From NCBI GenBank assembly GCA_964640865.1, contig CAZXIU010000002.1, forward strand, positions 1-41,958: DNA of 41,958 nt. The letters are read 5' to 3'. Below the pieces are notes generated by a model. That model did no database searches, had not been told where the DNA came from, and worked only from the letters and a program-made list of their open reading frames with translations. Of the stretch, positions 1 through 13,443 are shown piece by piece. Source of the DNA: an uncultured archaeon (GTDB lineage: Archaea; Aenigmatarchaeota; Aenigmatarchaeia; QMZP01; JAFGSV01). Both the position numbers and the translations under genes were made by a program. The first letter of the stretch is position 1; each line of letters begins with the position of its first letter.

Positions 1-180
1 CGACCGTACTCCCCAGGCGGCCCACTTAACGCTTTCGCTACGGCACTGGCAACCCACGTGAGATTGCCAATGTCTAGTGGGCATCGTTTACAGCCAGGAC
101 TACGGGGGTATCTAATCCCCTTTGCTCCCCTGGCTTTCGTCCCTCACCGTCGGATCCGTTCTGGTCTGGCGCCTTCGCCA

Positions 181-866
181 TTCACCTGGTATGAGCCATC
201 AGTATGAGTTTCTCCTTTTTCTCAGGATGCAAAATGTTTACATTTTTCTGGAAAAAAGAGAAATTTTTCCTCCCCGTTATCCAAAAACGTAGGGAAGTCA
301 TGTTTCTTTTGTCTGATGGACGTACATATACGCGATCATTTCTAATACCTGAAGTTTCTATTTTTAGGTCATTTAGTAGTGACATTATTTGCTCAAGGAA
401 CACTTCAAGTTCATTGGATAAAGAACTGTCTTTTGACAATTTGAAACATATTTGTTTACAATCGTCAGCTCTGAATCCACCGTCGTCATCAAATAGTGCT
501 CCGAGGAAGGCACTTTTAATTTTATCATTACCTTCCATAATCCAATTTGGGACTTCCGTTTTCTGAAGCACATTTGAACCAACTGGTGCACCCTGATTTT
601 CAAGGTATTTACCAACGTTGTTTGAAAACTGGTATCTTGGAGTTCCACCAATTGATGTGCCGACACTGAATTTAACATCACCAAGTAGAGTGTATATACA
701 TTTTCTTACATTTTCTTGTAAGAGACGATTTGAGTTGGTATATATGAAGTAACGTTTTGTGTATAGACCCATCACCTAGTGCGTGTCCCAATAATCGAGC
801 AATAATGACTTTATTCGCCATATATTGTACGTAGTAAGCCTAATAAAAATGAATGGCTCATACCAA
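181..866 (-). mobile_element. Archaeal BHB-type rRNA intron (686 nt) carrying a LAGLIDADG homing endonuclease gene
   Basis: In rRNA sense the 5' side reads CACC-UGU-UGGUAUGAGCCAU and the 3' side reads AUGGCUCAUACCA-GGUG-AAU-GGCG. This gives a 13-bp inner helix, a 4-bp central helix (CACC:GGUG) and two 3-nt bulges. Cutting after the 2nd bulge nucleotide joins ...GGACCACCUG to UGGCGAAGGCG, the conserved archaeal 16S sequence. Confidence 0.85.
182..775 (-). CDS. LAGLIDADG homing endonuclease, C-terminal 197 codons of a frame-broken gene (the first motif lies upstream in another frame, ATG at 821)
   Basis: The second LAGLIDADG motif KSAFLGALFDDDGGF is in this ORF. The first motif, MANKVIIARLLGHALGDGSIHK, is encoded at 821-756 in a frame offset by one. 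The two frames meet at an A4 run (minus strand, plus coordinates 755-758). The gene has the same orientation as the rRNA. Confidence 0.85.
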   Translation of the reverse strand: MMGLYTKRYFIYTNSNRLLQENVRKCIYTLLGDVKFSVGTSIGGTPRYQFSNNVGKYLENQGAPVGSNVLQKTEVPNWIMEGNDKIKSAFLGALFDDDGGFRADDCKQICFKLSKDSSLSNELEVFLEQIMSLLNDLKIETSGIRNDRVYVRPSDKRNMTSLRFWITGRKNFSFFQKNVNILHPEKKEKLILMAHTR

Positions 867-1183
867 CAGGTGGTCCCCAAGGGATTACAGGATTTTACCC
901 CTACCCCTTGAGTACCCCAGACCTCTCCCGGTCCCAAGTCCAACAGTTTCCCTAGCAAGCCCCACAGTTAGCTGCGGGATTTCACTAAAGACTTTCTGGA
1001 CCGGCTACGAACGCTTTAAGCCCAATAAACGTGGTTATCACTCGTGGCGCGGGTATTACCGCGGCGGCTGGCACCCGTCTTACCCACCACTTATTCTTGG
1101 AGCTGTTTACACTCCACAAAAGCATCCCCTATGTAAGAGAATGCACTCCAGATCCCTTCCTCACACTTGCGTGCATTGGGAAA

Positions 1184-1216
<33 letters not shown>

Positions 1217-1533
1217 TTCTTGTCTCAGAATCCATCTCCGAGCTTCCTCTCTCAAGGCTCGTACGGATTATCGGCTTGCCAGGACGTTACCCTAACAACA
1301 ACCTAATCCGGTGCAGTCCAATCCTCAAGCGCAAAAGCTTTAGAAAAGAAAACATTCCAGTACTTCTTATCTATCAGGTATTAGCCTCAGTTTCCCGAGA
1401 TTATCCCTGACTTGAGGGCATATTAACTACATGTTACTGAGCTTTCTGCCCTAATGTCCAAAGATGAACATCAAGACTTGCATGGCTTAGTCGAATCCGG
1501 ATAGCAATAACCTCCGGCAGGATCAACCGGAAT

Positions 1534-3054: not shown

Positions 3055-3188
3055 TGCGGGGGGCAGGATTCGAACCTGCGAAAGCACTGAGCTACAGGAT
3101 AACCCATTGGGGCGCCATCATCTTGGAATCAGCACTTAAGAACCCAATCTTAAGTCCTGCCCCTTTGGCCAGACTCGGGTACCCCCGC
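3055..3188 (-). tRNA. tRNA-Leu (UAA) with a 48-nt intron at 37/38 (3101-3148)
   Basis: Acceptor GCGGGGG/CCCCCGC with A73, anticodon stem CAGGA/UCCUG, loop CU-UAA-G...A, a long variable arm, and T arm GCAGG-UUCGAAU-CCUGC. The intron forms a canonical hBHBh' structure (CUUA:UGGG central helix, UUGGG:CCCAA inner helix). Confidence 0.9.
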
Positions 3189-12062: not shown

Positions 12063-12174
12063 TGGACTGGGTGGGAATTTCAGACTGGAAGCAGATTGCA
12101 TCTGCTTCATGCGCCTTTTGAACCCACGGCCTCCCGATTGCCAACCGAGCGATCTACCACTGATCTACCAGCCC
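12063..12174 (-). tRNA. tRNA-Ala (GGC) with a 40-nt intron in the T-loop at 59/60 (12077-12116)
   Basis: Acceptor GGGCUGG/CCAGUCC with G3:U70 and A73. The anticodon loop UU-GGC-AA is uninterrupted. The T stem is GUGGG...CCCAC. BHB: UUCA:UGAA central helix, bulges AAA and AUU, and inner helix GGC:GUC plus a 9-bp hairpin. Confidence 0.85.
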
Positions 12175-13092: not shown

Positions 13093-13207
13093 TGGGCCGA
13101 GCAGGATTTGAACCTGCGATATCCGCCTTACTTACACCTGCCGTCGGCATGCTGCTCAACGAAAGGATGCTGTAAGGGCGGCGTCATAACCACTAGACCA
13201 CCGGCCC
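13093..13207 (-). tRNA. tRNA-Val (UAC) with a 42-nt intron at 37/38 (13129-13170)
   Basis: Acceptor GGGCCGG/UCGGCCC with A73, anticodon stem CCGCC/GGCGG, and loop CU-UAC-A...A. BHB: CUUA:UAAG central helix with bulges CAG and UAA. Confidence 0.88.
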
Positions 13208-13324: not shown

Positions 13325-13443
13325 TGCGACCGCCGGGATTTGAACCCGGGTCGCTGGCTTTTTTCAAGCTTTTCAACTTTTGCCTGAGCTTTTCCGAAAA
13401 GCTTATGGGAAGCCAGAGTCCTGCCAGACTAGACTACGGTCGC
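13325..13443 (-). tRNA. tRNA-Gly (CCC) with a 46-nt intron at 37/38 (13360-13405)
   Basis: Acceptor GCGACCG/CGGUCGC with A73, anticodon stem CUGGC/GCCAG, loop UU-CCC-A...A, and T arm CCGGG-UUCAAAU-CCCGG. The inner helix AAGCUUUUC:GAAAAGCUU is perfect. The central helix has one mismatch. Confidence 0.85.

Follow-up and report, generated by a model that had tools for sequence, protein, structure and literature searches.

The 16S rRNA gene of this archaeon, a member of the Aenigmatarchaeota (DPANN), is interrupted at E. coli position 722/723 by a 686-nt insert (positions 181 to 866 of the window, minus strand) that we take, with a probability of about 0.93, to be an archaeal bulge-helix-bulge (BHB) intron. 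The window is the whole 41,958-nt stretch analyzed here, which forms the start of contig C2; the assembly totals 896 kb in 79 contigs and is 86% complete. The stretch occurs in salt-marsh metagenomes. The insert has BHB ends that covary among nine introns at the same site, and it encodes a LAGLIDADG homing endonuclease whose reading frame is broken in the window copy. In one salt-marsh metagenome, an allele with the intact gene and intron-less DNA were found together.

Position and ends of the insert

The window opens with a single-copy 16S rRNA gene on the minus strand (1533 -> 1; Rfam SSU_rRNA_archaea alignment). The rest of the gene, i.e., the 3′ part lost at the contig end, is absent from all other contigs of the assembly. 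At the insert, 692 nt stand against 6 positions of the Rfam model RF01959 (SSU_rRNA_archaea) and the flanks align with high posterior probability, which indicates an insertion of ~686 nt. The covariance model thus treats the segment as a pure insertion with exons aligned on either side, and the joined exons are colinear with it. When aligned to the E. coli 16S sequence (rrsH) by MAFFT, the joined exons are free of gaps and their junction falls between 722 and 723. An earlier note on this DNA, made from the letters alone, had given the length as 686 nt, which is exact, and had counted the insertion point to near E. coli ~720. The G+C content is 36% in the intron compared to 52% in the exons. 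The flanking sequence on the RNA strand is ...GGGGACCACCUG / UUGGUAUGAGCCAU ... AUGGCUCAUACCAGGUGAA / UGGCGAAGGCGCC... The features of the interrupted gene are as follows.

867..1533, minus strand: 16S rRNA exon 1 (E. coli 1-722); from the RF01959 alignment, with E. coli numbering by MAFFT.
181..866, minus strand: BHB intron, 686 nt; from the RF01959 alignment, folds, the intron-less relative G009, and DNA contigs of two runs over both junctions.
1..180, minus strand: 16S rRNA exon 2 (E. coli 723 to ~898), cut by the contig end; from the RF01959 alignment.
869..872, minus strand: exon strand (CACC) of the central BHB helix, paired to GGUG at 183-186; all four pairs form in each of the nine introns known here at 722/723.
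866..868, minus strand: 5′ bulge UGU, with its cut placed after base 2 (867/866); from the tRNA-Val register, the intron-less allele, and the 179/866 joint, with 1 nt of slack.
853..865, minus strand: inner helix, 5′ arm, 13 nt; from an inverted-repeat search, 100% complementary.
187..199, minus strand: inner helix, 3′ arm, 13 nt, which also codes for the last endonuclease residues; from the inverted-repeat search.
183..186, minus strand: central BHB helix, intron strand GGUG, overlapped by the endonuclease stop UGA (184-182); from the nine-intron comparison.
180..182, minus strand: 3′ bulge AAU, cut after the second base (181/180); from the fold, the nine-intron comparison, and contigs.

The two arms at 853-865 and 187-199 form the only inverted repeat of at least 10 nt in positions 100-950; it is perfect and lies one base inside each proposed splice site. 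In the minimum-energy folds of both a 751-nt stretch and a mini-construct, the insert is closed by this 13-nt helix plus CACC(U):(A)GGUG, and the fold of the whole 751-nt stretch has a z score of -5.8 against shuffles. RNAfold favors a 5-bp helix, CACCU:AGGUG, with one U-A pair that is able to join either helix; the register that fits the BHB rule is the 4-bp one with bulges UGU and AAU. The 13-bp inner helix, the CACC:GGUG pairing, and the two bulges are all as the earlier note had described them. Cuts after the second base of each bulge would release an intron of positions 181-866, with UUGGUAUG at its 5′ end and GGUGAA at its 3′ end, and leave the product GGACCACCUG-UGGCGAAGGCG. The ambiguity of the splice sites is a single base, as both cuts can be slid by one U with an identical product.

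The cleavage register itself had been taken from tRNA introns of the window, and it does give the 37/38 junction when applied to tRNA-Val(UAC) at 13207..13093, where CUUA (32-35) pairs with intron UAAG and the bulges are CAG and UAA. Rfam tRNA matches, not ARAGORN, were used for this check. All tRNA genes that were detected in the window carry an interruption (2281-2395, 3055-3188, 13093-13207, 13325-13443, and 12081-12174). Rfam reports four of them, in which at least 43-49 nt are inserted at the anticodon loop, and ARAGORN reports only one, a tRNA-Ala gene of 94 nt. In this genome, standard tRNA gene finders miss part of the set.

On its outer side, the motif looks relaxed. The helix between exon 1 and exon 2 has at best C-G, A.G, and G-C (three positions with an A.G mismatch) and is formed in no fold, and exon 2 makes its own native hairpin, UGGCG-AAGG-CGCCA, in the folds. 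The textbook helix-bulge-helix-bulge-helix described earlier therefore holds for the inner and central helices and the bulges, but its outer helix is marginal and was never predicted. With such a weak outer helix, cleavage would need an enzyme tolerant of relaxed motifs.

The intron-borne endonuclease gene and its frameshift

The earlier account of the intron as a BHB intron stands, but it missed the LAGLIDADG gene carried inside and the frameshift in that gene. The open reading frame fills 640 of the 686 intron nucleotides, with only 45 nt outside. An ATG at 821, 45 nt from the intron 5′ end, opens MANKVIIARLLGHALGDGSIHK... and the frame stops after 47 codons, of which the first 22 residues alone belong to the protein. 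The +1 frame carries on over 197 codons; its stop, the UGA at 184-182, falls within GGUGAA, a single base short of the 3′ splice site. The pieces are as follows.

678..821, minus strand: endonuclease N-terminal piece, 47 codons and then a stop, with LAGLIDADG motif 1, LLGHALGDG, at ~768-797; from the list of open reading frames and the homologue alignment.
182..775, minus strand: endonuclease C-terminal piece in the +1 frame, a 197-codon open reading frame with motif 2, FLGALFDDDGG, at 476-508; from homologues and Pfam.
749..758, minus strand: frameshift site, one AAAAC unit compared to two in the other allele (a 5-nt deletion); from contigs of run X2 versus run X1.

Joined across the break, the protein has 212 aa and matches Pfam LAGLIDADG_3 (PF14528) with 29.9 bits (cutoff, 22.5). 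Thirty homologues of 165-232 aa were found, most of them 208-232 aa long with 48-57% identity over 95-100% of the length. Neither a single-protein search nor a 12-sequence profile search brought up a relevant PDB chain by sequence; the family assignment comes from Pfam and the predicted fold. The model of an intact homologue (P0003, 56% identical) has a pLDDT of 94.6 and a double alpha-beta-beta-alpha-beta-beta-alpha fold; in Foldseek it matches the intein endonucleases TliVMA and PI-PfuI best, together with I-Tsp061I and I-DmoI. The cargo is a double-motif monomeric LAGLIDADG homing endonuclease by descent and a pseudogene in the window allele.

All close orthologues found (G195, G224, G132, G055, and GCA_975962685) occupy the same 16S site. 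A search for related loci in genome contigs returned only four, one of which is a distant paralogue in Woesearchaeota that does not lie in 16S. Elsewhere in the Aenigmatarchaeota, paralogues at 75-146 bits occur in about 35 more genomes (L047-L071), with frames mostly of 235-445 aa, none of them in 16S; these second-tier paralogues could be inteins, 23S introns, or free-standing genes. In the window and in GCA_975962685, the endonuclease frame runs through the inner-helix 3′ arm (window 182-199), as it usually does, and ends with the UGA of GGUGAA, so the same bases serve coding, the BHB, and the splice site. In G224, the intron 3′ end is GGUUAA and the frame stops earlier, at UAG.

The window copy is broken after codon 22 by a 5-nt deletion in a tandem AAAAC repeat. 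Where the family reads HKxKxYFIYTNSN, the window reads HK-RYFIYTNSN in the homologue alignment, i.e., 5 nt are missing. Four runs were compared (X1 and X2, DNA; X7 and X13, RNA) as Logan contigs, in which retained or circular forms would not show up if they were rare. In run X1, both junctions and the frameshift site are identical to the window. In run X2, GTTTT is inserted behind 753; on the RNA strand this allele has AAAAC twice, and its frame stays open for a 214-aa protein whose HKTKRYF agrees with the family HKxKxYF. The X2 allele with the intact endonuclease also has an A>C change at 572 (depth 4, one contig). Run X2 holds, in addition, a contig joining 179 to 866, which is intron-less DNA.

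The break could still be a sequencing or assembly error, or it could be bypassed in translation such that this copy makes an active enzyme. There is a single break in a frame that is otherwise open over ~212 codons, both catalytic acidic residues are present (GDG and DDDG), and the intact allele exists in run X2, all of which would suit this explanation. Against an error, the X1 contig over 689-935 is the same as the window, with the reservation that X1 may be the window's source sample. Furthermore, the alleles differ by one complete 5-nt repeat unit, which is typical of replication slippage and unlike a homopolymer miscall. An error or bypass is thus unlikely, and the window copy is most likely a real slippage deletion of one 5-nt unit.

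The same site in relatives and in RNA

The site is assembled in 21 of the 40 relatives compared and is uninterrupted in 14 of them, including all five genomes of the same genus in which it could be read (G001, G003, G006, G008, and G009). The most important of them is G009, whose 768 nt of 16S match the joined exons with one mismatch (window 1363; 99.87% identity) and are intron-less. Over the site it reads GGGGACCACCTGTGGCGAAGGCGCCAGACC, which is exactly the predicted ligation product; the agreement of the joined exons with conserved archaeal 16S sequence, as claimed earlier, is borne out by this genome as well as by the colinearity with RF01959 and E. coli. Three of the 21 relatives have a short intron at exactly 722/723 (G034, 38 nt; G036, 30 nt; G021, 88 nt) with no endonuclease gene, and four have a 41- to 75-nt insert near position 727, five bases downstream. 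Five other genomes (G195, G224, G132, G055, and GCA_975962685) have introns of 693-702 nt at 722/723, each encoding one of the closest relatives of the window endonuclease; G224, contig JACPAG010000001.1, is of the same class as the window genome.

Together with the window, this makes nine introns of 30-702 nt at the site in Aenigmatarchaeota genomes. Six of them, 686-702 nt long, carry the endonuclease, and the other three (30, 38, and 88 nt) lack it. The central helix has 4/4 pairs, and the geometry of two 3-nt bulges is kept, in all nine. The first pair of the central helix covaries, being CACC:GGUG in seven introns, AACC:GGUU in G224, and UACC:GGUA in G021, and the inner helices are unrelated in sequence, e.g., UGGUAUGAGCCAU, UAAUGGGUGCCAAA, CAGCAGGAGUCA, and GAGAUGGAA, yet remain complementary. 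This covariation, and the pairing of inner helices that differ in sequence, provides strong comparative evidence that selection acts on the structure and not the sequence of the intron ends.

In the RNA runs X7 and X13, the joined exon form was found with 31 and 13 bases past the joint, respectively. Depth in these runs is zero over 217-864, compared to 20-67 in the flanking exon bins. One joined RNA contig has a variant at 944 that is absent from both the window and G009. The joined RNA contigs agree with splicing, but they may derive from intron-less strains, because intron-less DNA with the same junction exists (X2 and G009). The transcript check suggested earlier thus gave joined exons and no intron coverage, with the qualification that the joint is the same as in the DNA of X2 and G009.

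The segment might instead be a lineage-specific expansion segment, or an intervening sequence excised without ligation, so that the mature 16S rRNA would be longer or fragmented. The origin of the joined RNA contigs from intron-less strains would be compatible with this, as would the many short inserts that relatives in the order carry, which may or may not be introns. Five observations make it very improbable. First, the segment is missing from a 16S sequence with 99.87% identical exons (G009). Second, it encodes a mobility enzyme. Third, it has 36% G+C in exons of 52%. Fourth, its BHB ends are maintained by covariation in nine introns. Finally, the RNA contigs have no depth over the segment, whereas DNA contigs cover it evenly.

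Even less probable is a group I or group II intron that splices itself, carries a LAGLIDADG gene, and has only incidentally BHB-like ends. The precedent for it is that LAGLIDADG-bearing group I introns occur in DPANN rRNA genes, one of them in an Aenigmarchaeota LSU gene (Nawrocki et al. 2018, PMC6125680). However, an Rfam scan of 100-950 with permissive filters gave no Intron_gpI or group II match at E values up to 10, and beyond the SSU model it gave sub-threshold noise only; at the gathering score, Intron_gpI likewise has no match. In addition, the reading frame takes 640 of 686 nt and leaves no space for a ribozyme core, the 30-, 38-, and 88-nt introns at the same site retain just the BHB, and the central helix between exon and intron covaries. 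Against misassembly of the insert, contigs of two DNA runs cross both junctions.

The 16S genes of the order hold other inserts as well. They are often 1.8-3.3 kb long (L010, L011, L014-L018, L021, L025, and L033), and that of G021 is ~5.5 kb, with large inserts of ~420-810 nt plus many of 30-140 nt; their boundaries were set by BLAST and are approximate. Large inserts near E. coli 782, 909, 919, 978, and 1082-1097 match or adjoin the published loci 781, 908, 919, 978, and 1093, and others are off the published list (~316, 948, 1000-1007, 1067-1080, and 1228). Just upstream of its 88-nt intron, G021 carries an additional insert, A-rich and ~150 nt long, in the region of helix 23 near E. coli 690 (L021, minus strand, ~2212-2400), and G031, an otherwise intron-free reference, has ~45 extra nucleotides near E. 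coli 697-703 (L003, ~2130-2175). The inserts just downstream of the 722/723 site are hairpins of 41-75 nt in the GCGAAGGC loop, near E. coli 727/728, in four genomes. They lie at the following coordinates.

L013:880-930: ~727/728 hairpin insert.
L015:2283-2333: ~727/728 hairpin insert.
L025:3140-3184: ~727/728 hairpin insert.
L026 ~741-817 (minus strand): ~727/728 hairpin insert.

In the L013 insert, a BHB can be drawn by eye, with GUGG:CCGU and bulges CGU and ACA; the ~727/728 inserts may be a neighboring mini-intron site.

Proposed mechanism, significance, and known systems

Splicing of this intron would follow the archaeal route. In the pre-rRNA, the last exon bases, CACC, would pair with GGUG near the intron 3′ end, and the 13-bp helix would join the intron ends such that each splice site sits in a 3-nt bulge. 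A tRNA-splicing endonuclease would then cut after the second base of each bulge, releasing the intron, and RtcB would ligate the exons to ...GGACCACCUG-UGGCGAAGGCG... We infer these two enzymes from the gene content of the genome, which encodes an RtcB ligase (PF01139 match, 516 bits) and two splicing-endonuclease homologues (PF01974) with reading frames of 189 and 398 aa.

G000:C12 (L039:1189-2385), minus strand: 398-aa splicing-endonuclease homologue; PF01974.
G000:C15 (L038:1231-1800), plus strand: 189-aa alpha-like splicing-endonuclease subunit; PF01974.

The 189-aa homologue has N- and C-terminal domains. In the 398-aa homologue, a strong catalytic domain in the interior is preceded by a weak match to the N-terminal domain and followed by a third, C-terminal unit that is also weak. 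The domain pattern resembles the epsilon-type endonuclease of ARMAN, an enzyme of 390 aa with three units that cuts relaxed motifs (PMC3239211).

To spread, the homing endonuclease would cleave intron-less DNA at the insertion site, and repair of the break would insert a copy of the intron. The empty site (GGACCACCTGTGGCGAAGGCG) holds a near-palindrome, CCAC-CT-GTGG, whose center is 2 nt from the insertion point. LAGLIDADG enzymes make a central 4-nt cut, and the placement of the near-palindrome, as read from the DNA, would fit such a cut. The window copy appears to have had its endonuclease inactivated just recently, by the 5-nt slippage deletion; it should still be spliceable but would probably be unable to home.

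The window intron is an ordinary archaeal rRNA intron and adds little to what is known of the mechanism. Its interest lies elsewhere. A well-bounded annotation prevents a miscalled 16S gene and spurious open reading frames inside rRNA. The 515F and 806R primer sites bracket the insert, and the V4 amplicon is 978 bp compared to 292 bp without the intron, as the earlier note had anticipated in saying that the amplicon would be longer; the organism would drop out of standard surveys while its intron-less, near-identical sister is detected. It is also the first intron at locus 722 that is seen to code for an endonuclease, and the population data give evidence of three allelic states. The intact X2 allele is a candidate source of a new, rare-cutting enzyme of the LAGLIDADG type whose target in 16S is defined. 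A wider proposal, for and against which we see about equal odds, is that the Aenigmatarchaeota, as mesophiles with small genomes, form a second major reservoir of BHB rRNA introns, comparable to the Thermoproteales, in which locus 722 is actively cycling. If this is true, empty, intact, and freshly frameshifted states coexist in one salt-marsh population and sister families keep 30- to 88-nt relics. The site would then be a natural system for watching the archaeal homing-endonuclease cycle, with the first endonuclease assignable to 16S site 722.

Among known systems, the closest are the archaeal 16S introns tabulated by Jay and Inskeep (2015, PMC4496867), who list 13 intron loci, each named after the E. 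coli position that precedes the insertion. In their table the present site is exactly locus 722. Two introns are listed there, partial, remnant, or uncharacterized and with no endonuclease gene; the table names Caldiarchaeum as host and the text also Thermoproteus (PMC4496867). The same source states 16S introns for Thermoproteales, Desulfurococcales, and Aigarchaeota only. BHB introns have been described alongside group I introns in DPANN rRNA genes (PMC6125680), and intron-containing CPR and DPANN 16S genes have been mentioned as a cause of primer failure (bioRxiv 10.1101/2020.05.14.094862). The novelty implied by the earlier note is reduced accordingly, since the position was published and DPANN 16S introns had been mentioned. 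A search of a limited collection of papers found none surveying BHB introns in Aenigmatarchaeota or assigning an endonuclease to locus 722.

The window intron is like the 16S BHB introns of Thermoproteales, Desulfurococcales, and Aigarchaeota in having a BHB at its junctions and, as we infer here, in its removal by the tRNA-splicing endonuclease and RtcB. It shares with the published locus-722 introns the insertion locus, in a conserved, non-variable region (PMC4496867). It differs from them, as compared by description, in its nearly intact double-motif endonuclease gene. It also differs in its host, which is not a thermophile but a mesophilic DPANN archaeon of salt marsh whose genome has ~0.9 Mb.

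The enzyme is similar to I-Tsp061I (PDB 2dch) and I-DmoI (PDB 2vs7 and others), which likewise have ~190-215 aa and two LAGLIDADG motifs per chain. The predicted structure suggests that it shares their alpha-beta-beta-alpha-beta-beta-alpha repeat fold (Foldseek E values of 2e-8 and ~1e-6, respectively; TM-scores of 0.6-0.7). I-Tsp061I, a 16S-intron enzyme of Thermoproteus, and I-DmoI are also encoded in BHB introns of rRNA genes. However, identity to them is 13-15%, the target site would be a different one (16S 722), and the window enzyme is predicted from sequence and fold.

The states of the site may also be set beside the homing endonuclease life cycle (Goddard and Burt; Burt and Koufopanou 2004, as cited in PMC11270868). 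All of its stages would be represented at this one site, the empty stage by G009 and X2 DNA, the intact stage by X2 plus five other genomes, the freshly frameshifted stage apparently by the window, and the presumed late stage by the mini-introns of 30-88 nt in G034, G036, and G021. The cycle at this site is read from metagenome snapshots, and its direction (gain or loss) and any homing within it are presumed.

Finally, rRNA insertion sequences with LAGLIDADG genes are known from CPR bacteria (Tsurumaki et al. 2024, PMC11270868). As in that case, the host belongs to a small-genome episymbiont lineage with many rRNA insertions, and endonucleases at the same position are mutually closest (PMC11270868). 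The CPR insertions differ in that they are often group I/II-like, with none described there as BHB (PMC11270868), whereas removal of the window intron would rely on an archaeal protein endonuclease.
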